Assembly (NCBI GenBank): GCA_031406095.1
Contig: JANOGR010000225.1
Coordinates: 1 to 46,048, forward strand
Direction of reading: 5' to 3'
Length of the DNA: 46,048 nucleotides
Source of the DNA: Ignavibacteriales bacterium
GTDB taxonomy: Bacteria; Bacteroidota; Ignavibacteria; UBA10030
The translations under genes and the position numbers were made by a program. This document shows positions 7,670 to 45,773 of this stretch, in pieces. Positions within the stretch are counted from its first letter, which is position 1. Every line of letters starts with the position of its first letter. The notes below the pieces were generated by a model, which had not been told where the DNA came from, ran no database searches, and worked only from the letters and a program-made list of their open reading frames with translations.

Positions 7670-9160
7670 TCAGTTCCGGCTGTTGGCCATTGTCAGGGAG
7701 TGCAACTTCGCCGAATGCTCTTCGATGAAAAAATCCCACGTGAACCGCCATTCCCAATTACCCGTCGATGTGCCGGGGTAATTCATCCTAGCTTCATTTC
7801 CCAGTCCCAAAACGTCCTGAATCGGAAAAATCGACGTGTCAGCTTTCGACTCGCTTGCGATTCGGATCATATCCCATTGAATGCTGGTCCCATCGCTTTT
7901 GGCGTATTCGAGAACGAATTTCTTCATCTTCGAATCGATTCTCCGGAACCAACCGACCGTCGTATCGTTGTCATGAGTTCCCGTATATACCATGCAACGC
8001 GTCTGATGGTTGTGCGGTAGGTTTGGGTGGTCGAGTCCGTCATCAAACGCAAATTGAAGTACCTTCATACCCGGCAATTCCAGTTTCTCGCGCAGCGCAG
8101 TCACATCGGGCGTGATAATTCCCAGGTCTTCGACGACAATCGGAAGACTGCCAAATGAATCGAGTATCTTCTCAAATAGGTCTTCGCCCGGGGATTTCAC
8201 CCACTGCCCTCGTTCTGCGGTCCTCTCATTTGCTGGCACCTCCCAATAAGCGAGGAACCCACGGAAGTGATCGATGCGGACTATATCAAACAGAGAAAAC
8301 GAATGTCGAAGGCGCTCTTTCCACCAGCGATATCCGGATTGCTTCATCACATCCCATCGGTAAAGCGGATTCCCCCACCGCTGCCCGGTTGGACTGAAGT
8401 AGTCAGGCGGCACACCAGCGACAACAGTCGGATAGCCGTGTTCGTCAAGAAAAAACATGTTGGGGTTCGACCATACGTCAACACTGTTATGTGCCACGAA
8501 AATCGGGATGTCGCCAATAATCTGAACTCCTTTGCCGTTCGCATAGGACTTCAGGCTCATCCACTGTCTGAAAAAAGACCATTGGACAAACTTGTGAAAT
8601 TGAATCTGCTCCCGAAGATCGGCTTCGACCTTTTTCAGAGCCGTTCGGTCCCGCTTGACGATGTCCGAGTTCCAATTGCACCAGAGAGCTCCTGCGTGTT
8701 CATCGTACAGCGCCATAAACAGAGCAAAATCGTTCAGCCAGGAAGAATGGGATTCACAGAATCGCTCATACTCCGTTTTATCTGCGATGAGTCCGTGATC
8801 CCAAAAATTGTGGGCGGCCTTTTTGAGCCTGGGGATTCTGAAGCTTGAAGCTGCCGCGTAATCAACTTTGTGCGGATGAAATGCTGGCGGGGACTCTATG
8901 TCCTTCTTCCCAAGCCAACCCCGCTCCACAATCTCATGGAGGTCAACAAACAGCGGACTGCCGGCGAATGCAGAGGGACTCATATACGGCGAATTCCCCA
9001 TGCCGGTGGGGCCCAACGGGAGCATTTGCCAAAGAGACTGCTTCGCAGCGACGAGCCAGTCCACAAACCGGAATGCATCCTGGCCAAAATCCCCGCATCC
9101 ATTCGGCCCCGGGAGTGAGGTTGGGTGAAGCAAAATTCCACTGCTGCGTTTGAATTTCAT
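7670..9160 (-). CDS. malQ: 4-alpha-glucanotransferase (amylomaltase, GH77)
   Basis: [52 protein letters not shown] and YTGTHDNDT motifs. Confidence 0.96.
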
Positions 9161-12882: not shown

Positions 12883-13386
12883 CTAGTTCATGAACAGATA
12901 AGGCTTCCAATGTTCATCCACACTGCCAACGAAGTGTCGGATAAACATCACATGATTCGGCCGTATTGGCTTCCGCTGCAGGGATATATGAGCTTCACCG
13001 GGCGTACGATCGCCCTTCCTGTTGTTGCAATCGATGCACGCGCACACGAGGTTTTCCCACGTGTCAAGGCCGCCACGGGCTCGAGGCGTGATGTGGTCCA
13101 CTGTGAGCGAAACATCGGATTTGCCGCAATACTGGCACCGATGGCTATCGCGACGCAGGATATTCTTACGAGAAAGGACGATTTTCTTGTATGGAACACG
13201 GACGTAGACAGAGAGGCGGACGATGCTTGGAAACGGCATCGTTATGGAGACGGAGTGGAGAGATCTTCCTTCACTGGCGGCGATCAATTCAGCTTTGCCA
13301 AGATACAAGAGAACAACTGCTTTCTTCACATTGCAAACACTCAGGGGCTCGTAGTTGTGGTTCAGCACGAGCACCTTTCGATTCAT
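12883..13386 (-). CDS. HNH endonuclease (McrA-like, Zn-binding)
   Basis: VLVLNHNYEPL, RKNILRRD..RCQYCG, LTVDHITPRARGG.DTWENLVCACIDCNNRKG. Confidence 0.92.
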   Translation of the reverse strand: MNRKVLVLNHNYEPLSVCNVKKAVVLLYLGKAELIAASEGRSLHSVSITMPFPSIVRLSVYVRVPYKKIVLSRKNILRRDSHRCQYCGKSDVSLTVDHITPRARGGLDTWENLVCACIDCNNRKGDRTPGEAHISLQRKPIRPNHVMFIRHFVGSVDEHWKPYLFMN

Positions 13387-33541: not shown

Positions 33542-33949
33542 CTATTTTTTCTTCATTTTGTCTGCGAACAGCTGAGCGACGTTTTCAATGTCATAGCCCA
33601 CCTTGGGCAGGTACACCCCGCCGTACTTCTCGACCATGGCTTTGAGAGTGTCGTACGCGTCTGCGCTGCAGAAAAACACGGGTGTTGCCCTGTTCGGTCC
33701 CTCTTTTTTTGCCAACTGAAGGAGTGCAATGCCGGGCAAGTGTCCCTTGAGATTGGTGTCTTTGAAATCGTTATCGAGAATAATCAACTGAAACTGCTCG
33801 GCTTTGATTTTCTGCCAAGTCTCAACGCTTGTCGCCGTTTCAACGATGGCGATCTCGTCTTCCAGTATGGCGGTCGCAACTTCGAGGGCAAACCCGTGGG
33901 ACTTCCGTTGCCCTTCGTCGTCGTCGGCGACCAGAACCTTATATGGCAT
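33542..33949 (-). CDS. Single-domain response regulator (receiver)
   Basis: KVLVADDD, LIILD (phospho-acceptor), PGIALL, FFCSA and YLPK motifs, with no output domain. Confidence 0.85.
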   Translation of the reverse strand: MPYKVLVADDDEGQRKSHGFALEVATAILEDEIAIVETATSVETWQKIKAEQFQLIILDNDFKDTNLKGHLPGIALLQLAKKEGPNRATPVFFCSADAYDTLKAMVEKYGGVYLPKVGYDIENVAQLFADKMKKK

Positions 33950-34044: not shown

Positions 34045-35802
34045 CTACCGTTGTCCGGCCTTTCGGTACACTGTCTCCCCTCCCACCACCGTCATCTCAA
34101 CACTGATCCCGGGCAAGTCCTTCGCTGGAACTTTCATCACATCGTCTGAGAAAACGACAAAATCCGCAAGTCGACCTTTTTCGAGTGAGCCTTTCAGCCC
34201 TTCCGCGAATTCGGCAAAGCCTGCCCATCGTGTGAAGCTCTTCACAGCTTCTTCCCGAGTCATTTTCTCATTTCCGTACCAGCCATCGTTGAACAACGTG
34301 GAGTCCGCAAGTCCATCCGGGGAGAGTTGGAACTGCGCTTTGACTTGCTCAGCCGACAACGGGCTGCCCTGTCGATCCCTTCGAGTGACGGCCGCGTAAA
34401 TTCCCAACAACGGGTTGGGGTCTTCCACGGGGAAATCCGACCCGCCTGGAATAACAACCCCGGTCTCCAGCAACGACCGCCATGCATATGCTCCACGAAC
34501 CCGACGCGCACCCAGACGCGCCTCGGCCCAGTACATGTCCGATGTGCAATGTGTAGGCTGCATACTGGGGAGAACACCAAGCTGTTTGAAGCGCGGGATG
34601 TCGCCTTGTTCAAGGACTTGAGCATGCTCGACACGCAACCGGTGATCAGGCACCGAATGACGCTTCAGTGCAGCCTCATACACGTTTAAGACAATATTGT
34701 TCCCGCGGTCGCCGATCGCATGAGTGCAAACCTGGAAACCATGCGTCAGCGCATCCTCCACTGCCTTTGTCAACTCTTCGTCGGAAGACATTGTCAACCC
34801 TCTGTTCCCGGGGTCGTCGCTATAGGGTTCGATGAGCGCCGCTCCCCTCGACCCTAAGGCACCGTCGATATAGAGCTTGAGAGCGCGAACGGTGAGCCTG
34901 TTGTCTCCGTATCCGAGAAGGGGACCTGACTTCAAAAACGCATCCCATGTTTCGCCAACGCCGCCTATGGCAGCGTAAATTCTGACCGGTAATTTTCGTT
35001 CGTCAATTGCCTTCTTATAGAGCTCAATCTCCCGCATCTCGACGCCCATGTCCTGGACAGAGGTAATTCCATAACTCAGGCATTCCTTGACAGCAAGGTC
35101 AAGAGCCTCTCTTGATTCCGCGTCGGAAAGTGGCGGCAGGTGTTTCGCTACCAGATCCATCGCCGCATCAATGAAAACGCCCGTTGCGTTTCCCGATGCG
35201 TCCCTCACTATTTTGCCGCCCGGAGGATCTTTCATTTCTTTCGCGATGCCGGCCATCTTCAATGCTTTTGCATTCACCCAACATGCATGGCCGTCGACGC
35301 GTGTCAAAAACACTGGGTTTTGGGGAGTTACTCCATCAAGCATGCGATGCGACGGGAATTTCCTGGATTTCCATAGATTCTGGTCCCATCCTCTTCCGCG
35401 AATCCACTGGTCTTTTTGAACCTTTGCAACACGGGCTTTGACTCTCTCCGCCACCTCCTGCTCGCTTGCAGCCCCGCCGAGGTCCACGGTCATGCGCGCT
35501 ACGCCAAGTGAAAGGAAATGAGCATGCGCGTCGATGAATCCGGGCAAAACTGACTTCCCTTGAAGGTCGATTGTGGTTTTTGCTGTGAACCTCCGCGTCA
35601 TCGAACCCGTCGACCCCACCCCGGCGATCTTACCATGGTCCACTGCGATGGCTTCGGCAACGCTGAGATTATCATCCATCGTATAAACCTTGCCGTTCAC
35701 AAAAATTGTTTCTACCTCAACGGGGAAAAAGAAATACCATGCGACCGCAATCAGCACAATTGATATACAAAAAATGAACAGTATTCGCACTTTCTTCGTC
35801 AT
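34045..35802 (-). CDS. YtcJ-like metal-dependent amidohydrolase with N-terminal membrane anchor/signal
   Basis: PGFIDAHAH, RVDGHA, DGALGSRGA, HAIGD, RVEHAQ, GSDFPVE and G.LADFVV motifs. Confidence 0.92.
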   Translation of the reverse strand: MTKKVRILFIFCISIVLIAVAWYFFFPVEVETIFVNGKVYTMDDNLSVAEAIAVDHGKIAGVGSTGSMTRRFTAKTTIDLQGKSVLPGFIDAHAHFLSLGVARMTVDLGGAASEQEVAERVKARVAKVQKDQWIRGRGWDQNLWKSRKFPSHRMLDGVTPQNPVFLTRVDGHACWVNAKALKMAGIAKEMKDPPGGKIVRDASGNATGVFIDAAMDLVAKHLPPLSDAESREALDLAVKECLSYGITSVQDMGVEMREIELYKKAIDERKLPVRIYAAIGGVGETWDAFLKSGPLLGYGDNRLTVRALKLYIDGALGSRGAALIEPYSDDPGNRGLTMSSDEELTKAVEDALTHGFQVCTHAIGDRGNNIVLNVYEAALKRHSVPDHRLRVEHAQVLEQGDIPRFKQLGVLPSMQPTHCTSDMYWAEARLGARRVRGAYAWRSLLETGVVIPGGSDFPVEDPNPLLGIYAAVTRRDRQGSPLSAEQVKAQFQLSPDGLADSTLFNDGWYGNEKMTREEAVKSFTRWAGFAEFAEGLKGSLEKGRLADFVVFSDDVMKVPAKDLPGISVEMTVVGGETVYRKAGQR

Positions 35803-35805
35803 AGC

Positions 35806-37578
35806 TCAGTTCACTAATTCCTTAAATCCCCTTTTCGATAAATTCCAGTAGATCACCCCACTGGCCGCCAAACCAACCAGGATAAAGATCAATCCTTCAG
35901 TATGCATTCCTAAGATGAGCTTTCCAACGCCAAAGAGCATCGAGTACACGAGAACGATCCCGGCAATCCAATTGAACAGGAGTCCGATGAACCCTGAATC
36001 GCCTTTCGTTTCAGGCACGAGATGTTCGATCGCCCGCCATCCAATTCCACCCGGATGGACGCGTCGATAGAATTTTATAAGGGTTTCAGTGTTTGTCGGC
36101 TTCGTCAGGAATGTCACTGTAAGCCACGCAATGGTGGTAGTAGGCACAAGATAAAAGAGTGTGTCGGGGAATTGAAGATTCCAGCCGTGATGGTGGTTGC
36201 CGAAAGTAATAATGGCGTAGACAATCATGGGCGTCACCATCGCCGTGATCTCGCTCCATGCATTGATTCGATGCCAGAACCACCTCAGGATAAGCACAAG
36301 TCCCAGGCCCGCTCCCGCCTCGATGATAAAACCCCAGGCGGCCGAGATTGTAGACAAGATCAGGGTAACACCGACTGACAAAGCCATTATGACAATAGTT
36401 GCTACGCGAGACACAAAAATAAGATTCTTCTCGTCTGCATTGGGCCTCATAAAGCGCTTGTAGAAATCATTGATAACGTAGGATGTTCCCCAGTTCAGCT
36501 GGGTTGAAATCGTCGACATGTAAGCGGCAAAAAACGAAGCCACCAGCATTCCCTTCAATCCCACAGGCAGGAAATCGCGCATGGCATAGACATAGCCAAG
36601 TCGTTTTTCATCGGGACCGAGTTCCGGATACAGTATGAGCGTGGCCAAACCGACGAGAATCCACGGCCAGGGACGCACACAATAATGTGCGATCGTAAAC
36701 CAAAGTGTTGCAAACAATGAATGTTTTTCATCTTTGGCAGACATCATGCGCTGGGCAATGTATCCTCCTCCGCCCGGCTCTGCACCCGGATACCACGCCG
36801 CCCACCACTGAATGCCGACGTAAGCCAAAAATGCGCTCACACTCAGTGCAAAAGCACCGCCGAGGCTTTGCGGCGAGGCTTCGCCAATCGTCGGGACAAA
36901 TTGCATGGTCCATGACGGCAGCTTGCTCGTGAGCCCTTCTATTCCTCCAATCTGTGGCAGGGAGAGCACGACAAACGCCAGCACGGTTGTTCCAAGCATG
37001 GCAAGAACGAACTGAAAAGCGTCGGTGACGGCAACTCCCCAGAGCCCGGACATGGCCGAATAGACCGCTGTTATGACAAGTGCAAGAGCGACATAGAACA
37101 TCACCTGGCCTTGCGGAATGTCAAACATTCCTTCGAGGATCGAACCCATCGCAAGGTTCACCCAGCCCATGATGATGCAATTGATGAAAACGCCAAGATA
37201 GATCGCACGGAAACCCCTCAGAAATGCAGCAGGTTTTCCGGAGTAACGGAGCTCTACGAATTCCACGTCCGTCATGATGCCGGCTCTTCTCCACAACCTC
37301 GCAAAAAAGAAGACGGTCAGCATGCCGCCAAACACGAAATTCCACCAGAGCCAGTTGCCGGCGATTCCATTTTTTGCCACAAGTTCCGTAACGGCCAGCG
37401 GAGTGTCGGCGGCAAACGTCGTCGCGACCATCGAAGTACCGGCAAGCCACCACGGTAAATTTCTGCCTGAAAGGAAAAACTCCTGTATGTTGCTTCCCGC
37501 CCTTTTTGTATAGTAGATTCCGATGGCGGCGCTGCCGATGAAATAGACTGCGATGATGACCCAATCAAGAGTATGCAT
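35806..37578 (-). CDS. Sodium:solute symporter (SSS) family protein
   Basis: FFLSGRNLPWW, SMVATTFAADT, GLWGVAVTD, YIAQRMMSAKDE and AAYMST motifs, with many TM helices. Confidence 0.93.
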   Translation of the reverse strand: MHTLDWVIIAVYFIGSAAIGIYYTKRAGSNIQEFFLSGRNLPWWLAGTSMVATTFAADTPLAVTELVAKNGIAGNWLWWNFVFGGMLTVFFFARLWRRAGIMTDVEFVELRYSGKPAAFLRGFRAIYLGVFINCIIMGWVNLAMGSILEGMFDIPQGQVMFYVALALVITAVYSAMSGLWGVAVTDAFQFVLAMLGTTVLAFVVLSLPQIGGIEGLTSKLPSWTMQFVPTIGEASPQSLGGAFALSVSAFLAYVGIQWWAAWYPGAEPGGGGYIAQRMMSAKDEKHSLFATLWFTIAHYCVRPWPWILVGLATLILYPELGPDEKRLGYVYAMRDFLPVGLKGMLVASFFAAYMSTISTQLNWGTSYVINDFYKRFMRPNADEKNLIFVSRVATIVIMALSVGVTLILSTISAAWGFIIEAGAGLGLVLILRWFWHRINAWSEITAMVTPMIVYAIITFGNHHHGWNLQFPDTLFYLVPTTTIAWLTVTFLTKPTNTETLIKFYRRVHPGGIGWRAIEHLVPETKGDSGFIGLLFNWIAGIVLVYSMLFGVGKLILGMHTEGLIFILVGLAASGVIYWNLSKRGFKELVN

Positions 37579-37718
37579 AATGTTGAGCTAGAAAGACTTC
37601 AGGATGAGTGACGAGAAGCTATGGAGAAAGTGTCGGGGCGATGAGAACGTGCCTAATGTAGTCTTTGACCCACCGAATTGCAACGGAAAACATTCCCAGC
37701 CTGGTGGATAACTTTTTG

Positions 37719-37747
37719 TTGCTCATTTCAGCAAGAATGCCTATTTT
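37719..37747 (+). promoter_or_regulatory. Putative sigma70-type promoter for the GH38-like gene
   Basis: TTGCTC-17 nt-TATTTT about 40 nt upstream of ATG 37788. Confidence 0.45.
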
Positions 37748-37787
37748 CTTCCACTCTTTTCTAAAAACCGCAAAAAATCTGGAAAAA

Positions 37788-40700
37788 ATGACAGTCGATT
37801 TGTTGGATCAAATTCTCCCGCACGTCAAGGACGCGATCTATCCCGAGCGGCGCCCACTGCCAATCTGGAAATTCAAAGACGGAGACGTTCCGGCTGCCCA
37901 GAGTTCTTCCTTACGCTACACGGCCTGGCCGTCAACTCAAATTCCCCACCAATGGACCGGCGATAACAAGACGATTTGGTTCCGTCAGGAGGTGACCATT
38001 CCTCCAGACTTCATTGGCAAACCCCTCGCAGTTTTGCTGGATATACCGGAAGCGCTGCTTTTCGTTGACGGCAAGTTATTCCAGGGCCTCGATGAGCATC
38101 ACAGAGAATCGTTTCTGACCGAAAAAGGCAGGTCGAATCAGAGCTTCCTGTTCGCCATCCGGGCTTCCAGCGGGAGAAAACGCGGGATCAACTCCTTCAG
38201 CAACGCAGAACTTGTCGTCATCAATCGGACCGCGAGGGCATTGTATAACGGGTTAACAACGTTGCGGGAACTCGATAAGCTTGCAAGTCACGGGTCGCAG
38301 GAATCGAAAGACGTCCGTGAGTTGATTCGCCGAACACTCATTTTTCTGAAATACTTCAAGCCGGAAGGCGAGGAATACCCGAACGCCATCGGACGCGCAC
38401 ATAAATTCCTGACAACGTCAGTCGAGAGCGAGTTCAAAACCACGATTCCAGGCATGGTGCATCTTATCGCACAGTCGCGTTTGAATCCAGCCTGGCTTTG
38501 GACTATTCAAGAAACAAAACACAAGGCCGCAGCAACGTTCAGCAATGCGCTTCGTGTCCTGGAAGAATTCCCGGGGAGTACTTTTACACAAGGCCAGGCG
38601 TTTCTCTACGAGTTAGCGGGCCGTTCGTATCCTGACGTTCTCCGTCAGGTCAAGCTCAGGGTAGCCGAAGGACGATGGGAACCGGCGGGTTCCATGTGGG
38701 TTGAGCCCGACTGCAATATCCCTGGCGGAGAATCACTCATCAGGAACATCCTTCTGGGAAAAAAATATTTCAGAGCCGAGTTTGGCGTTGATTCGAGCGT
38801 TGCCTGGCTGCCGGATTCCCCCGGGTTCGCGTCAAACCTTCCACAGATCCTTCGCAGGTCCGGCTTTTCCTTCTTTTTCACGTCAAAGCCGCTCAAGAAC
38901 GACACAACGAAATTCCCACACAACTCTTTTTGGTGGGAAGGCCTCGATGGAACAAGGATTCTCAGCCACGTCCCGCCCGTCGGGGCCGAAGGGCAGTTGG
39001 AGCCCAAAGACATCAAGAAAACGTGGGATGATTTCACTCAGAAAGATGAAACTCCCATGGCCGCACAGACTTTCGGTTTTGGCAATGGGGGTGGCGGAAT
39101 TTCAGCAGACCAAATTGAAACCGGTAAAGTGATTGAAACAATTTCCGGGTTACCAACTTCAAAGATATCGAACGCAAGAGATTTTTTCACCGCTCTGGAA
39201 CTGCAGGCGAAAGCTTTGCCCGTTTGGGCCAAGGAACTGTATGTTGAGAAGAACAGGGGCACGTATTCGACTCAAGCCTGGATAAAACATGAGAATCGCA
39301 GGTGCGAGGGCCTCCTCTATCAGAGTGAGCTGTATGCATCTCTTGCCGCCATCATGGGAAAGTCGCCGCAGGTTCGCCGATACCCCGTGAAAGAACTCGA
39401 GAGAGCATGGAGTCTGTTGATTCAGAATCAAAGCAAGGAGATCGTCTCCGGCACATCCATCTCCGATGTGTACAAGGACTCACGGAACGATTTCGCTGAG
39501 ATTCACACCCTTGGCGACAAAATTATTGACCGGTCTCTCAGCGCGTTTGTGGAGCCTTCAAGGAAAACCAAGGATCTTTCCTTCACGGCGTTCAATGCTC
39601 TCGGACATGAAAGAAATGAATACATCGAAGTGTCGTTTGAATCTTCGGAAAAGCTTTTCATGGTTAGAGACAATGAGGGAAACGTTGTCGAGAATCAGTT
39701 TCTTGACCGCTCGCGCGGCACTGTGACCTTGCTTTGTTACCTTCGGAGCATTCAGCCATTTTCCTCGAAATCATTTGTCGTAACTCCCATTCCAGGAAAA
39801 GCCGAGGCTCCGGAGCCATGGAAAACTTCGAATAGGATCATTGAATCCCCTTTCTACAGGATTCGACTGGATAAGAAGGGCGGCATCAGCTCCATCTATG
39901 ACAGACAATTGCGGCGCGAACTTGTGGAGCGCGGCAAACGGGCAAACCTCCTGCAGACCTTCAAAGATGTTCCCGAACAGGCAGACGTGTGGGAACTTGA
40001 ACCGGGGTTCGACCGGCATAAGCTGGACTCATTCGTCCTGAGATCCTTCAAATTCGCCGAAACCGGGCCGCTTCGGGCACGTATCCGATTCGAATACCGG
40101 TCTGAGCGAGGCTCATCGATTATCCAGGACATGATGCTCTATCACCAGGAGAAGCGTATCGATTTCGCCACCCGGGTCAGCTGGCGGGAACAACGAACTT
40201 TGCTCAAAGCTGTTTTTCCACTGAACATCAAGTCACACGTCGCGACGTTCGAGACTCAGTTTGGCGTTATCGCTCGAACAACAAGACCGAGAGAAGACAT
40301 CGATAAGGCGAAGTTTGAAGTGCCGGTTCAACAGTGGTTCGACTTTTCAGAACCGAAACTCGGCGTGAGCATTCTGAACGACGGCAAGTACGGATGCGAT
40401 GCGCTGCACAACGTGTTGCGGCTTACGCTCATACGGTCTCCTCTCTACCCTCACCCAAACGAGCCATGGAGACTGAACGACGACAAATGCACCGACCAGG
40501 GAGAGCATAAGTTCACCTATTCGCTCTACCCGCATGCCAGTGACTGGAAAAAAGGCCGGACGATCCAGCAGGCACGGTCGCTGAACATACCCCTGAAGCT
40601 CGTTGCACACTCCGTCGGAACGATGCGCTCAGTCCCTCTCATGCTGTCCAAATCCAATGTCATTGTCAGTTGCCTGAAGAAGGCTGAGGATTTGGACGAC

Positions 40701-40898
40701 TTTGTCCTTCGGCTGTACGAGTCGTTCGGCGAGTCAACAGATTGTGCTGTCAAATTCGGATTCACGGTAAAATCGGCCGTTGAATGCGATTTGATGGAAA
40801 ATCACTTGAAGGAAATGAAGGTTTCCAAGGGAAAACTGGCGCTGAGGTTCAAACCGTTCGAGATCAAAACGTTGAAGTTGGTGTTCAGGAAGAAATGA
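37788..40898 (+). CDS. Glycoside hydrolase family 38 (alpha-mannosidase)-like protein with degenerate active site
   Basis: AWLW, GRWEPAGSMWVEPDCNIPGGESLIR, WLPD, FWWEGLDGTRIL, ELY.E..RGTY, LNDGKYG, RLTLIRSP, DQGEH.FTY and LRLYE motifs. Metal-binding and acid/base residues are substituted (see findings). ATG 37788 preferred. Confidence 0.9.
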   Translation: MTVDLLDQILPHVKDAIYPERRPLPIWKFKDGDVPAAQSSSLRYTAWPSTQIPHQWTGDNKTIWFRQEVTIPPDFIGKPLAVLLDIPEALLFVDGKLFQGLDEHHRESFLTEKGRSNQSFLFAIRASSGRKRGINSFSNAELVVINRTARALYNGLTTLRELDKLASHGSQESKDVRELIRRTLIFLKYFKPEGEEYPNAIGRAHKFLTTSVESEFKTTIPGMVHLIAQSRLNPAWLWTIQETKHKAAATFSNALRVLEEFPGSTFTQGQAFLYELAGRSYPDVLRQVKLRVAEGRWEPAGSMWVEPDCNIPGGESLIRNILLGKKYFRAEFGVDSSVAWLPDSPGFASNLPQILRRSGFSFFFTSKPLKNDTTKFPHNSFWWEGLDGTRILSHVPPVGAEGQLEPKDIKKTWDDFTQKDETPMAAQTFGFGNGGGGISADQIETGKVIETISGLPTSKISNARDFFTALELQAKALPVWAKELYVEKNRGTYSTQAWIKHENRRCEGLLYQSELYASLAAIMGKSPQVRRYPVKELERAWSLLIQNQSKEIVSGTSISDVYKDSRNDFAEIHTLGDKIIDRSLSAFVEPSRKTKDLSFTAFNALGHERNEYIEVSFESSEKLFMVRDNEGNVVENQFLDRSRGTVTLLCYLRSIQPFSSKSFVVTPIPGKAEAPEPWKTSNRIIESPFYRIRLDKKGGISSIYDRQLRRELVERGKRANLLQTFKDVPEQADVWELEPGFDRHKLDSFVLRSFKFAETGPLRARIRFEYRSERGSSIIQDMMLYHQEKRIDFATRVSWREQRTLLKAVFPLNIKSHVATFETQFGVIARTTRPREDIDKAKFEVPVQQWFDFSEPKLGVSILNDGKYGCDALHNVLRLTLIRSPLYPHPNEPWRLNDDKCTDQGEHKFTYSLYPHASDWKKGRTIQQARSLNIPLKLVAHSVGTMRSVPLMLSKSNVIVSCLKKAEDLDDFVLRLYESFGESTDCAVKFGFTVKSAVECDLMENHLKEMKVSKGKLALRFKPFEIKTLKLVFRKK

Positions 40899-40991: not shown

Positions 40992-41027
40992 CTCCTCCCC
41001 TTTTAGGGGAGGATGAAAGGTGGGGTC
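40992..41027 (-). repeat. Hairpin repeat (left arm) flanking DUF559 gene
   Basis: Minus strand GACCCCACC-TTTCA-TCCTCCCCT-AAA-AGGGGAGGA: a tail plus a 9-bp stem. Confidence 0.75.
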
Positions 41028-41031
41028 TACT

Positions 41032-41430
41032 TCAAGACCCACCTTTGTCCCGAATCCTAGCGCGCACTTGTTCGAGAATATCATCTGCAAGAGCGTCGGT
41101 TTGCTCCATCACTTCCGAGTTCGAATATCTTAAGACTTTGATACCCTGTTGTTCTAAATCTGAGTCACGTTCCTCATCATTCCGAGTCCCCTCATCGTTA
41201 TAGTGTCCAGCTCCATCTACTTCAACGTTGAGTTTAGCTTCGTGGCAATAGAAATCCAGAACGTGCCTGCCGATTGGAAACTGTCTTCGGAATTTCACTC
41301 CAAGCTGATTGTCGCGAAGACATGACCACAGTTTCTTTTCTGCATCTGTCATTCCTCGTCGCAAAGTACGAGCAACCGAAACTAAACGGCTTGAATATTT
41401 CGGGAAGTGTCTTTGCAAAAGCGACCTCAC
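41032..41430 (-). CDS. DUF559 / Vsr-like endonuclease domain protein
   Basis: ARTLRRGMTDAEKKLW..LR, KFRRQFPIG, DFYC, VEVDG..H and RD..L...GIKVLR motifs. The exact start is uncertain. Confidence 0.9.
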   Translation of the reverse strand: MRSLLQRHFPKYSSRLVSVARTLRRGMTDAEKKLWSCLRDNQLGVKFRRQFPIGRHVLDFYCHEAKLNVEVDGAGHYNDEGTRNDEERDSDLEQQGIKVLRYSNSEVMEQTDALADDILEQVRARIRDKGGS

Positions 41431-41560: not shown

Positions 41561-42856
41561 TCACTTCAACAGCATCATCCGCTTTACGCTGCTGAAGCTT
41601 GATTCCCTCGACTCACCTGTCACTGCGATGCGATAGAAATAAGCCCCTGTGCTGAGGTTCCTCCCATCCAGTTTCGCCTCGTAAAACCCCGGACCCTGTT
41701 CTGCTTCAACGAGTGTCGCCACTTCTTGGCCCAGCAGGCTGTACACCTTCAGTGAAACACGGTATAAGCTAGAACTTCCCGGTATCGAGTAGCGGACCAT
41801 GGTCTCCGGGTTGAATGGGTTGGGATAGTTCTGATAAACAATAAACTCTGACGGTCCTGATTGAAGCAATTCTGCCACTTTCGTTGCGCTTTGTTGTAAG
41901 AACCATGCTGTTGCTGTCGGATCGCTCTTGAAAAAATTTAGCAGCAGGTCCGCAACCTTTTGGCGGCCGCTTGTTGATGGATGTGTCCCGTCGCTCTGTA
42001 AATCGCTGCACTGCCAGGTCAGCCCATCAATTCGTGGTGTCGTCCCATCGGCCCATAGATAAGGACCCCACGCGAGCCAGGGTGCCTGAGGATTGGAACC
42101 TGTTGCTGCCAGGGTAGAATCACCGTTGATTTGTTTTTCTATGAGCCACTTCACGGCAAATCCGGATTCATATGCATAGGGCTCAGGATTCAACGTTGTC
42201 GACGCGTATCCCGCATAGATTCTGCTGGAATAGTACGCGATCTTGATGTTCGGATACTTGGCTTTCAGGTTTCGCGCGATTGACTCATAGTTGGCTTGCA
42301 GCATTTGGGCATGAACCGGAAATGCCTGAGTTGGACCGGCGTTAGCTCCTTTCACCCAAGCTGCCTGAACCTGTTGACCCGTTACTCCTGCAGCCGCGAG
42401 TCGCTGGTCAAAAACAGTCCAGAAATTGGCATTCGGGTCTGAAATGACCGAAGCCGTTTGTCCGCCCTGAGCCCCGTCGACTATAACAAGCTGTGGATTC
42501 TTTGAGGGGTCGGCATTTGCAATCGAAACGAATGTCGAGAATTCCTGAGTGGTATTCGACATCCCGATCGAAACCAGAACAATCTTCCCGTTCGTAAGAT
42601 CCTCAACGCCGCTGGAGTTTAATGGCTTGATTTGCTGGACGAGTGCACGGCCAATGGAGTCATGAGTCGCGGGACGCTGATTCTGTCCGTTTGGGTAAAG
42701 TCCGCCGGCGTAATTTTTGTATAAACCCGTCCCAAGTTCGGTGAGCGGCTTAAACCCCACCGATGGTATCGAACAGTTTTGCCGCGCAACAAGTGTATCG
42801 TATTGCAGGAAGGCAACAATTGTAAAAAAGATGAATGTGACTTTTCTCCGCCTCAT
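41561..42856 (-). CDS. Secreted SGNH-hydrolase-like protein with T9SS-type C-terminal domain
   Basis: Signal peptide, VSIGMSN / GAQGG / DGTHP resembling SGNH blocks I, II and V, and C-terminal QNYPNPFNPET...TGAYFY...KRMMLLK. Confidence 0.75.
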   Translation of the reverse strand: MRRRKVTFIFFTIVAFLQYDTLVARQNCSIPSVGFKPLTELGTGLYKNYAGGLYPNGQNQRPATHDSIGRALVQQIKPLNSSGVEDLTNGKIVLVSIGMSNTTQEFSTFVSIANADPSKNPQLVIVDGAQGGQTASVISDPNANFWTVFDQRLAAAGVTGQQVQAAWVKGANAGPTQAFPVHAQMLQANYESIARNLKAKYPNIKIAYYSSRIYAGYASTTLNPEPYAYESGFAVKWLIEKQINGDSTLAATGSNPQAPWLAWGPYLWADGTTPRIDGLTWQCSDLQSDGTHPSTSGRQKVADLLLNFFKSDPTATAWFLQQSATKVAELLQSGPSEFIVYQNYPNPFNPETMVRYSIPGSSSLYRVSLKVYSLLGQEVATLVEAEQGPGFYEAKLDGRNLSTGAYFYRIAVTGESRESSFSSVKRMMLLK

Positions 42857-43004: not shown

Positions 43005-45773
43005 CTAATGATGTACGGCCACCTTCTGCTCTTTGAAAGCATCTTCAAACGAAATCCAAACCGATTTGGCCGTTGCATCAAAACGCCAGCCAGTACCTTT
43101 GCCATCGGATGTACGTGGAACTAACTTGCCGTTCATGGTGATGGAGGAGGGCTGCTTCTGAGCATCGTTCACCTTCAGCAAGAGCGTTCTCTTCGACGGC
43201 CTGTAGTTTCCTTGTGGGCTTGAAAGGACAATCTCGGTTGATTTATCCGAGCTTTTGAGGAAGACGGTACGCTGCGAGTATTCTCCCTGTGCATAGCCCA
43301 GGCTTTTCCCATCATCCTCATAAACAACACTCGTTGCTTCAATCGCTGGATAGATCTCGAACGTCAACGGCTCTGTTGTTGTCTGGTCTGAATACTGCAA
43401 GCCCTGCTGCGTGGCAATTATGGCTCCTCCTTTTGCAAAAAGAGGAATGCGGTCAATCGGAGCATCCGCTGTGATCCATTTAGGACCAACGAGTTTTTCT
43501 CCCGTCCAGTAGTTGTACCACTCGCCTTTAGGCAGGTAAACTCCTTTTGTCGTTTTTCCGGGTTCAAGCACGGGAGCCACAAGCAGGGCATCGCCAAACA
43601 TGAACTGCCTGTCTGTCCAGTAAGCCGTTTCATCATCGGGAAAATCGAAAAACATCGGCCGCATAATGGGAATCCCAGTAGTGGAAGCGAGATAAAACTG
43701 CGTGTACACGTAGGGGAGGAGTTTATACCGCAGCTCGATGGATTTCTTGTTGATCGCCTCGAATTTCGGTCCGTACGACCACGGCTCCTGGTCTGCACTG
43801 CCGATTTCTGTGTGCGTCCGCATCAAAGGCATAAAGGCGCCAAGCTGCAGCCACCTCGCATACAGCTCCCCGCTCGGGCTCCCCACAAACCCTCCGATAT
43901 CCGTGCCAACAAACGGCTGACCCGAGATGCTCAGGTTCAAGCACATTGGCACAGCCATTTCCAGATGCTCCCAGCTGCTGATATTGTCGCCCGTCCATGC
44001 CGAAGCGTACCTGTTTCCTCCGGCATAATTTGCCCGCGTCAACACGAAGGGGCGCTCGTTTGGCCGGAGTCTCGACACGCCTTCGAACGTCCCGCGCGCC
44101 ATTTGCATGCCATACACGTTGTGATTCTTGCGATGGTCGGTTTTCCGTCCCTCGTCGTCGTGCATCACGTTCAAATCGAACGTCTTCATCGGCACATCGA
44201 ACACAGCCGGCTCGTTCATGTCGTTCCAGAACCCTTTCACACCGTCATCCAGAAGTCCTTTGTAGAGCGTTCCCCACCAGTCGCGGGCTTCTGTTTTTGT
44301 GAAATCCGGAAACACGCAATCGCCTGGCCAGACTTTCCCCACGTAGTTCCGTCCATCGGGCCATTTTACGAAATGATCTCCCTTCACGCCTTCGTCGTAC
44401 ACCCAGTAGCCCGGCTCGTTCTTTATTCCAGGGTCGATGATCACCACGACTTTGAATCCATCTTTCGACAGGTCATCGATCATTTTCTTCGGATTCGGAA
44501 AGCGCGTCTTGTCCCACGTGAAGCACCGATACTCATCCATATAATGGATATCCAGATAAATGACGTCGCATGGGATTTGTTTCTTTCTAAACGTTTTGGC
44601 AATCTCGCGTACGCGGGATTCCGGATAGTAGCTGTAACGACACTGCTGGTAAGCGACAGCCCATTTGGGCGGCAGCGGCATTTTCCCCACAAGCTCCGAG
44701 AATTGCCTGAGCACCGCTTTGGGCTCGGGGCCATACATGAAATAATAGTTCAATTCCCCGTCAACAGCTCCAAACGAGTATTGTTCCTGGTGCTCCTTCC
44801 CCATGTTAAACGTCGAGTAGTACGTGTTGTCGAAAAAGATTCCGTAGGTCTTACCTTTGCGTGTGCCGTAGAAAAACGGAATCGTTTGGTACAGCGGATC
44901 TGTATCGGCTCTGTAAGCGGGTATATCCGTGTTCCACATGGACATCGTTTTCCATTTTCGGTTCAAAGATCCAGCCTTCTCGCCGAAGCCAAAGTACTGC
45001 TCGTCGAGGGGCATCGTTTTCCAAACACCGACTTGATTTCCCGACCATGCCATACCTTTTCCGGGTTCATCCTGGTTCACGAGGTTCCCTTGTGCATCAT
45101 AGAACGAGAGCCTGCATGGGTTTTTCGTCACACGTAGTGTGAGTTTTGAGGTTTTCAGCACAACCTCGCTGCTCCCGTCATCGACTGTGAAGGTTCGTGG
45201 TCCAAGATCGGCTTTTACAACCGCCCACGACCTGTCTTCAGCGAATTGGCCATCCTGATCCATTCGAACGCGTAACACCGATTGATCCAAAACTGTAATC
45301 CGGACTTTTGCAGGCGGTGCGGAAAGAATAATGCCATCACCTGTTTTCTCCACGGCTGACACATTGCCGATCGATGTCCATTGAGCAGAAACAGGAATCC
45401 AGACAAAAACACTGATAGCAAGAGTAAGGAAACACTGCATTAAATAGGGATTGTCATTCCGTCGGATTTTAAGACGCCAGCCCGCCTTCGGTCTGGCGGG
45501 GAATCCAGAACGGGTTTGATATGAGCGTCTAGCCCAAGTCGGCGCGAGTGACGATAGGATTCGGGTTCTGGACTCCCGCCTGCCTGTCCGGTAGGCAGGC
45601 TTACAATCCGCGGGAGTGACAAGTTTTTTCTTGTTTGTCATTCCCGTCAGCCTGCCGAACAGGCAGTCTAAAAATCCGCGGGCCCGACTAAGTCCGCCGT
45701 AAGCGGACGTCGTCGGGCGGGCATGACAAGGTGTTTTTTGGGTACTTTGCATCGCTTCATTGAAGGGTTTCAT
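43005..45773 (-). CDS. Glycoside hydrolase family 31 alpha-glucosidase; 5' end carries an in-frame repeat insertion (alternative start at 45440)
   Basis: YFGFGEK, DPLYQTIPF, IYLDIHYM, GFWNDMNEP (nucleophile), WTGDN (acid/base), DIGGF and QEPW motifs. The signal h/c-region is LTLAISVFVWIPVSA|Q. Confidence 0.93.
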   Translation of the reverse strand: MKPFNEAMQSTQKTPCHARPTTSAYGGLSRARGFLDCLFGRLTGMTNKKKLVTPADCKPAYRTGRRESRTRILSSLAPTWARRSYQTRSGFPARPKAGWRLKIRRNDNPYLMQCFLTLAISVFVWIPVSAQWTSIGNVSAVEKTGDGIILSAPPAKVRITVLDQSVLRVRMDQDGQFAEDRSWAVVKADLGPRTFTVDDGSSEVVLKTSKLTLRVTKNPCRLSFYDAQGNLVNQDEPGKGMAWSGNQVGVWKTMPLDEQYFGFGEKAGSLNRKWKTMSMWNTDIPAYRADTDPLYQTIPFFYGTRKGKTYGIFFDNTYYSTFNMGKEHQEQYSFGAVDGELNYYFMYGPEPKAVLRQFSELVGKMPLPPKWAVAYQQCRYSYYPESRVREIAKTFRKKQIPCDVIYLDIHYMDEYRCFTWDKTRFPNPKKMIDDLSKDGFKVVVIIDPGIKNEPGYWVYDEGVKGDHFVKWPDGRNYVGKVWPGDCVFPDFTKTEARDWWGTLYKGLLDDGVKGFWNDMNEPAVFDVPMKTFDLNVMHDDEGRKTDHRKNHNVYGMQMARGTFEGVSRLRPNERPFVLTRANYAGGNRYASAWTGDNISSWEHLEMAVPMCLNLSISGQPFVGTDIGGFVGSPSGELYARWLQLGAFMPLMRTHTEIGSADQEPWSYGPKFEAINKKSIELRYKLLPYVYTQFYLASTTGIPIMRPMFFDFPDDETAYWTDRQFMFGDALLVAPVLEPGKTTKGVYLPKGEWYNYWTGEKLVGPKWITADAPIDRIPLFAKGGAIIATQQGLQYSDQTTTEPLTFEIYPAIEATSVVYEDDGKSLGYAQGEYSQRTVFLKSSDKSTEIVLSSPQGNYRPSKRTLLLKVNDAQKQPSSITMNGKLVPRTSDGKGTGWRFDATAKSVWISFEDAFKEQKVAVHH
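45429..45761. mobile_element. 333-nt composite non-autonomous repeat element (three TGTCA-type hairpin units with nested micro-palindromes)
   Basis: Units at 45452-45508, 45568-45621 and 45636-45728 share an 8-bp or longer stem and a 9-nt GGATT(T/G)T(A/T)A loop once nested inserts are removed. Excising the element joins MKPF to LTLAISVFVWIPVSAQ. Confidence 0.7.

Follow-up and report, generated by a model that had tools for sequence, protein, structure and literature searches.

An Ams1/MAN2C1-type GH38 protein with an eroded active site, probably a retained pseudo-mannosidase, in an orthogroup with recurrent loss of catalytic residues

The window, that is, the whole stretch of DNA analysed here, comprises 46,048 nucleotides from an Ignavibacteriales bacterium (assembly GCA_031406095.1, contig JANOGR010000225.1). 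At 37788-40898 on the forward strand it carries a gene for a protein of glycoside hydrolase family 38 (GH38), here termed P0001, which the source annotations label 'alpha-mannosidase', as they do its degenerate relatives. A preliminary description, made from the letters of the window alone, had read the gene as a full-length GH38 alpha-mannosidase that has lost its catalytic machinery. The frame was indeed full-length: translation gave 1036 codons and no internal stop, and the product scored above the cut-offs of all four GH38 Pfam domains (38N, 221.9 bits against 25; middle, 55.9 against 31.1; 38C, 179.8 against 25; C2, 74.2 against 22), which places it in GH38 by sequence and fold. The frame extends open upstream as far as a TTG at 37665. 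The ATG at 37788 is nevertheless the likely start, because the homologs are 1036-1041 residues long and share the N-terminus that it defines (consensus MAxDLLxQILPHVK). No signal peptide was found by inspection, and P0001 should therefore be cytosolic. The gene and the motifs on which the analysis turns are the following:

37788..40898, forward strand: coding sequence of the putative GH38 pseudo-mannosidase (P0001, 1036 residues plus stop), of the Ams1/MAN2C1 type, characterized by translation, domain matches and a ratio of nonsynonymous to synonymous substitution rates (dN/dS) of 0.142
38472..38495, forward strand: QSRLNPAW, residues 229-236, facing (Q/H)xHxDxxW; Zn ligands His to R231 and Asp to N233, W236 kept
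38805..38825, forward strand: WLPDSPG, residues 340-346; nucleophile and Zn ligand Asp343 kept, F345 to P (F in 96 of the 97 intact homologs defined below)
39075..39098, forward strand: GFGNGGGG, residues 430-437; general acid/base Asp to N433
39234..39260, forward strand: ELYVEKNRG, residues 483-491; conserved His to N489, R490 kept
39426..39440, forward strand: NQSKE, residues 547-551, facing NQFHD; F to S549, Zn-ligand His to K550, substrate Asp to E551

The closest solved structures were those of yeast Ams1 (7vqo, 6lz1, 7dd9 and 5jm0) and four unnamed alpha-mannosidase chains of about 1060 residues; these top eight matches had E-values from 2e-107, for S. pombe Ams1 (7vqo/6lz1), to 2e-76. 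Structures of the MngB/Streptococcus type and of the Golgi type ranked far below. For PDB 7UFR-7UFU, a literature search found no describing paper. P0001 has the domain order of Ams1 and MAN2C1 (38N barrel, middle helix bundle, 38C and C2 beta domains), and also resembles them in its length of about 1040 residues, an extra N-terminal region and the lack of a signal peptide. It differs from Ams1 in that its N-terminal 136 residues have no sequence alignment to it: about 220 residues precede the barrel, and the alignment begins only at residue 137 and spans residues 137-1033. It is also bacterial and has no autophagy context. The extra N-terminal region of the subtype comprises a jelly-roll and a four-helix bundle; the jelly-roll model PF22907 was undetected in P0001, and in one intact ortholog it scored 13.9 bits, below the cut-off. 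In Ams1, according to PMC7609781, the N-terminal and beta domains build the tetramer. P0001 thus appears to descend from a cytosolic GH38 alpha-mannosidase of the Ams1/MAN2C1 type (class II-C, tetrameric), its own tetrameric state being a prediction.

Alignment of P0001 to S. pombe Ams1 (PDB 7vqo/6lz1) allowed a role to be assigned to each altered residue. According to PMC7609781, the Zn ligands of Ams1 are H290, D292, D402 and H615; D402 is the nucleophile and D493 the acid/base, and W295, Y460 and D616 bind the substrate. Where the Zn enzyme Ams1 has H290, D292, D402, H615 and D493, P0001 has R231, N233, D343, K550 and N433, so that only the nucleophile, which is also the fourth Zn ligand, is kept (one Zn ligand of four). 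The substrate-binding D616 is replaced by E551, W295 is kept as W236, and Y460 aligns to a gap. The motifs of P0001 listed above face GHCHIDSCW, WLPDTFG, GKGDGGGG, ELYFELHRG and CQFHD in Ams1. The positions and readings of the motifs in the preliminary description, and its count of three replaced Zn ligands plus the acid/base, agree with this alignment. It had also taken the whole change from HxHxDxxW to QSRLNPAW as degeneration; the replacements R231 and N233 stand, and the leading Q does not count. Q229 is no loss, because Q is the commonest residue at that position among intact homologs (Q in 65, H in 30 and Y in 2 of 97).

The degree to which these losses are confined to the active site was assessed in an alignment of P0001 with the best 120 of 1775 database homologs. 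Homologs with all seven key residues were taken as intact (97 of the 121 sequences); 13 of the 121 have four or fewer. In the intact set, 161 columns are at least 97% conserved, and P0001 retains 144 of them. Among the key columns it has lost six of seven, and among the remaining 154 it has lost 11 (Fisher p=3.7e-6; the test is in part post hoc, two key columns having been taken from the list in the preliminary description). Near-invariant positions altered in P0001 also include, besides F345 and H489 (to N), W370 (to K; W in 93 of 97) and F549 (to S; F in 96 of 97). We conclude that the losses centre on the active site beyond chance, as the preliminary description had claimed.

The ortholog in a species of the same genus (G001) is 92% identical to P0001 and carries the same substitutions, except that D233 is retained; replacement of this Asp Zn ligand by Asn is found only in the window genome (G000). 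The two genes differ at 95 nonsynonymous and 169 synonymous sites, and this one species pair gave dN 0.041, dS 0.286 and dN/dS 0.142 (bootstrap 95% interval, 0.106-0.192). The ratio lay between 0.08 and 0.22 for the individual GH38 domains, with 0.146 for the catalytic 38N domain, and between 0.03 and 0.31 for ten neighbouring gene segments. Since the sister species has the losses too, they are older than the split of the two species, and P0001 has been under ordinary purifying selection since then. Thus, P0001 has two of the properties expected of a pseudoenzyme: it is a homolog of active enzymes without catalytically essential residues, and selection has continued after the loss, as seen in two species with common losses. 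It does not have those of a pseudogene, as the frame is open and dN/dS is far below 1. Nor were internal stops found in any ortholog match in the 41 related genomes searched. The degenerate pair G021/G013 showed a proportion of nonsynonymous differences (pN) of 0.224 at a saturated proportion of synonymous differences (pS) of 0.83, and intact pairs showed a pN of 0.21-0.23. That the gene is retained rather than decaying had been proposed in the preliminary description on the ground that the losses fall on active-site residues, and the rates agree with it.

GH38 matches were present in all 24 same-family genomes among the 41 searched. In a tree of these proteins (IQ-TREE, LG+G4, quick search), the ortholog clade comprised 23 of the 24 together with the window genome; the remaining genome, G020 (77% complete), yielded only a paralog type. 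At 14 of 19 relatives' loci, the GH38 gene is divergent from a unit that includes the sodium:solute symporter (SSS) gene and/or the Amidohydro_3 gene, a receiver gene, in some cases an MFS gene, a hypothetical gene, PrmC and Dtd. Intact and degenerate copies have this divergent locus in common and are therefore positional orthologs. All seven key residues are kept in 13 of the 24 genomes of the clade, six in two (G011 and G004) and five or fewer in nine (G000, G001 and G009; G018, G021 and G013; G007; G005 and G002). In the G004 ortholog (L023/L050, 8001-11111) the sole change is at the nucleophile, WLPN for WLPD; this may be a sequencing variant or else one more, fifth inactivation that happened very recently. 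The preliminary description had called for a survey of orthologs: the sister species does have the substitutions, but the more distant positional orthologs are mostly intact.

The nine degenerate orthologs require at least four changes of state on the tree. Forcing them into a single clade cost 68.7 log-likelihood units (approximately unbiased [AU] test, p-AU 0.0145, for a group chosen after inspection of the tree). The replacements at the key positions are also unlike between lineages (RNDNNKE, RSGDHRN, NKDEYSG and SED--DH). The recurrence of the loss across the bacterial family goes beyond what had been read from the window. The ortholog of G009 (P0004), 60% identical to P0001, represents a partial state, in which the Zn ligands and the nucleophile are kept, the acid/base is N and the residue at the position of D551 is E. 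In P0004 (L037, 8001-11108), P0005 and P0003, the Gly beside the lost acid/base is now acidic (GYSNEGGG, GYPNEGGG and GYGKDGGG); to judge from these motifs, a carboxylate shifted by one position may have been an intermediate before the full loss in the genus of the window.

Loss is rare in the wider family. Of 150 representatives of clusters formed at 50% identity, 135 have all seven key residues, five have six and six are fragments; only four are full-length and strongly degenerate, and three of these are relatives of the degenerate lineages described here. Frequent loss is therefore a trait of the orthogroup and not of the subtype at large. In the representative library itself, the two top matches to P0001 are degenerate (P0119 with none and P0122 with one of the seven key residues), and intact orthologs of about 50% identity have no separate entry. 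Annotation inherited from cluster representatives may thus mix dead and live enzymes.

To locate the relaxation within the protein, we used the mean identity of each domain to the 13 intact orthologs, keeping the two most diverged degenerate copies (G005 and G002) apart from the other seven. In the 38N barrel, identity was 0.56-0.65 for the intact orthologs, 0.43-0.53 for the seven degenerate ones, 0.33 for G005 and 0.21 for G002. The middle helix bundle followed the barrel in its extra divergence in degenerate copies. Over the N-terminal 220 residues or so, the corresponding values were 0.49-0.59, 0.51-0.54, 0.42 and 0.37, and over 38C they were 0.47-0.59, 0.51-0.55, 0.45 and 0.29. The N-terminal part is the best-preserved domain of G002. 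At the level of single columns, F549 and D551 have been lost in all eight degenerate groups, and D433, H231, H550, D60, F345, G57, R249, R256, L400, G434, H489 and F825 in at least three of the eight; 112 of the 161 conserved columns have never been lost in them. The active site and its shell have been released from selection, which has been maintained on the remaining architecture. The preliminary description had suggested a glycan sensor among possible roles, and a mannose-binding form of that suggestion is weakened by the uniform loss of F549 and D551.

On these grounds we consider it probable that P0001 is a catalytically dead pseudo-mannosidase, retained for a non-catalytic role that depends on its architecture. 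Erosion in the genus of the window would have begun with the acid/base Asp and the substrate Asp, the state that persists in G009, and would have continued with the two His Zn ligands and the His of the HRG motif; the Asp Zn ligand would have gone last, in the window genome only. Arg231 and Lys550 would now occupy the former metal site, their own positive charge filling and stabilizing it. With no canonical Zn binding and no protonation of the glycosidic oxygen, P0001 should not hydrolyse alpha-mannosides and is presumably inactive on them. What would preserve the gene is a second, catalysis-independent function of the orthogroup, which we infer from recurrent loss with open frames together with relaxation only in the barrel and helix bundle. 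The conserved N-terminal and beta domains may carry that function, for example as a scaffold or protein-binding platform, probably an oligomeric one, and it may already have been present in the active ancestors. More tentatively, and with a probability that we put somewhat short of even, the whole orthogroup could be bifunctional, both a cytosolic mannosidase and an oligomeric scaffold or binding platform, with the second role under the stronger selection. Bifunctionality of this kind would explain how catalysis could be given up on at least four occasions while the gene was kept.

Several points weigh against a dead but retained mannosidase. The nucleophile Asp343, W236 and R490 are all retained, and the Arg and Lys replacements could form a new binding site instead of filling a hole. 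The dN/dS value derives from a single species pair (264 substitutions); other pairs are synonymously saturated (pS 0.76-0.84), hence the comparison of pN. The most diverged degenerate orthologs, G005 and G002, have a pN of 0.47 and look strongly relaxed, so that retention may differ in strength among lineages. The group submitted to the AU test was, as stated, chosen with the tree in view, and the choice of two key columns (H489 and the F/D context) was not based on a published catalytic role. The scaffold role is proposed from the domain pattern. Finally, the presence of GH92 and GH130 shows no co-variation with the state of the GH38 site. Loss of the site as a correlate of loss of mannoside catabolism had been considered on its own account and was not supported, for the same reason (25 genomes for each family): GH92 (PF07971) is present in G000, G001 and G009, which have a degenerate GH38, and also in G003, G005, G006, G010 and G014, and GH130 (PF04041) shows no pattern relative to the site state.

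The alternative that fares best, though we consider it unlikely, is that the pocket has acquired a new function, in the metal-free binding or turnover of another ligand, and that P0001 is a sensor, a receptor or an enzyme of altered chemistry. Arg231 and Lys550 would then bind an anionic group (a phosphate, carboxylate or sulfate on a sugar), with Asp343 as nucleophile or binder. Consistent with this are the retained Asp343, W236 and R490, the persistence of a dN/dS of 0.146 in the catalytic domain, and the fact that both lost His ligands have turned cationic, H550 having also become R in an independent lineage (G021, G013, P0104 and P0116). The acidic residue that replaces Gly beside the acid/base in P0004, P0005 and P0003 (N-E or K-D) could likewise be a shifted carboxylate. 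However, the window genome has no such neighbouring Glu or Asp (G434 is kept), the barrel is the fastest-diverging domain in the degenerate copies, and the nucleophile has also been lost in two lineages (WLPG). Moreover, the unlike replacements across independent lineages look like relaxation and not like convergence.

That the gene is on its way out, a dispensable mannosidase recently inactivated whose frame is open merely for want of time, seems very improbable. The root-to-tip distance of P0001 is about 1.4 times that of its intact sisters (0.65 as against 0.43-0.48), the window genome alone has suffered the additional loss of a Zn ligand, D233N, and some degenerate orthologs are very diverged (28% identity for G002). 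Decay does not, however, fit a dN/dS on a par with that of functional neighbours, with an upper bootstrap value of 0.19, nor 1036 codons free of stops in both species when the losses predate their split (dS 0.286). Three other degenerate lineages have kept frames of about 1040 residues open through synonymous saturation.

The preliminary description had also raised an inactive subunit of a hetero-oligomer; such a subunit, regulatory or structural, would assemble with a second GH38 protein that is active. Among pseudoenzymes, it is common for a dead subunit to partner a live paralog. GH38 proteins of the Ams1 type are tetrameric according to PMC7609781. An intact paralog of the Ams1 subtype was not found in the window genome (2.89 Mb in 393 contigs, completeness estimate 100%). 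The only other GH38 protein there, encoded on contig 58, has 901 residues and intact motifs (HSHWD, IPDQFG and NQDHD), but it is a distant, MngB-like protein with 26-27% identity to P0001 over the core and no match to the N-terminal 220 residues or so. It reached 566 bits on NF007331 (mannosylglycerate hydrolase), for which the equivalog cut-off is 1138, and was not assigned as MngB; it belongs to a GH38 subfamily other than that of P0001. Where the ortholog is degenerate (nine genomes), a second Ams1-like copy was found in G007 only. We give the hetero-oligomer little credence, and the active paralog that the preliminary description had proposed to look for is represented only by this distant protein. 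Equally hard to credit is an alpha-mannosidase that is still active, its metal site or acid/base rebuilt by other residues: the nucleophile is kept and E551 and E487 are carboxylates nearby, but three of the four Zn ligands and the acid/base have been lost together, at positions that by definition do not vary among the 97 intact homologs, and 135 of the 150 wider representatives keep the full set of seven.

The surroundings of the gene are as had been described: GH38 is divergently oriented with respect to an SSS transporter gene and an amidohydrolase gene. The neighbouring features are the following:

34045..35802, reverse strand: Amidohydro_3 family gene, second in the divergent unit; accompanies the ortholog at 12 of the 19 loci from relatives
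35806..37578, reverse strand: sodium:solute symporter (SSS) gene, the divergent neighbour; directly next to the ortholog at 12 of the 19 loci from relatives
37579..37787, no strand: divergent intergenic region of 209 bp that separates the SSS and GH38 genes; no sigma-70-type match
40993..41013, no strand: palindromic, GC-rich hairpin where the GH38 and DUF559 genes converge; terminator-like call on the minus strand

A promoter-like sequence had been reported for GH38, but a sigma-70 consensus scan of 37579-37787 found no site, the scan covering promoters of the sigma-70 type; by eye, no exact copy of a TAnnTTTG-type motif was seen in the same region. The GH38 transcript may use the hairpin at 40993-41013. 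No conserved partner was found downstream of GH38 in the relatives' loci, where this side varies between genomes. In the window, it is occupied by a DUF559 gene (41032-41430, reverse strand; Vsr-like endonuclease fold), the hairpin being common to both 3' ends; this gene was matched only in G001 among the 19 relatives' loci and looks like a genus-specific insertion. In G001 (L036, around 8640-8790) the SSS gene looks split, but this was dismissed as an artefact of assembly: there is no frameshift, and the interruption is a scaffold gap of 100 N whose flanks are duplicated.

Of the genes in the neighbourhood, the best conserved codes for a single-domain receiver-like protein of 135 residues (33542-33949, reverse strand), 99% identical in G001 (dN/dS 0.03); its identity across the family is 81-94%. 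The protein scored 26.8 bits on Response_reg (cut-off, 30.2) and had no NCBIfam match, and may be an atypical stand-alone receiver. Beyond the DUF559 gene lie a gene for a 431-residue protein with a weak C-terminal sorting domain of the type IX secretion system (41561-42856, reverse strand; 81% identical in G009) and, next to it, a GH31 glycosidase gene (43005-45773, reverse strand). Elsewhere in the window, a small HNH endonuclease gene (12883-13386, reverse strand) sits among housekeeping genes, between those for a class I Trp/Tyr tRNA synthetase and chorismate synthase.

Glycosidase-derived pseudoenzymes are known from other families, such as the GH18 chitinase-like lectins. Heparanase-2 (GH79) is another (PMC12406646). 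As in P0001, the whole glycosidase fold is present in these proteins with the catalytic residues replaced, and selection keeps a binding or regulatory role. They are, however, eukaryotic, secreted and ligand-binding, whereas P0001 is bacterial, predicted to be cytosolic and a GH38 protein; moreover, its substrate-binding residues are also eroded and the loss is recurrent within one orthogroup. No description of a GH38 pseudoenzyme was found in the literature searched, the coverage of which excluded subscription journals. A precedent closer to P0001 is human MAN2C1, of the same GH38 subtype, for which activity-independent control of apoptosis and binding of PTEN are mentioned in PMC7609781 (citing Wang & Suzuki 2013 and He et al. 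2011). MAN2C1 is an active enzyme that moonlights, whereas the activity of P0001 is apparently gone, which would leave at most the other role, and we claim no homology of partners.

To our knowledge, a non-enzymatic role has so far been reported in the Ams1/MAN2C1 subtype only for the human enzyme. Given the 'alpha-mannosidase' annotations, reconstructions of metabolism in these uncultured bacteria will include an activity that is probably absent. That catalysis has been lost repeatedly in one syntenic orthogroup while a protein of about 1040 residues was kept amounts to a natural experiment, and this recurrence points to an unrecognized, catalysis-independent function of GH38 proteins of the MAN2C1/Ams1 type. 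From the columns that independent lineages have lost together, residues coupled to catalysis in this subtype can be listed on the basis of data: H231, D433, F549, H550, D551, F345, R249 and H489, together with G57 and D60 in the N-terminal domain. If the orthogroup does combine both functions, it would offer a counterpart in bacteria to what is reported of human MAN2C1 apart from its activity, and its naturally dead copies would be separation-of-function alleles with which the second role could be found.

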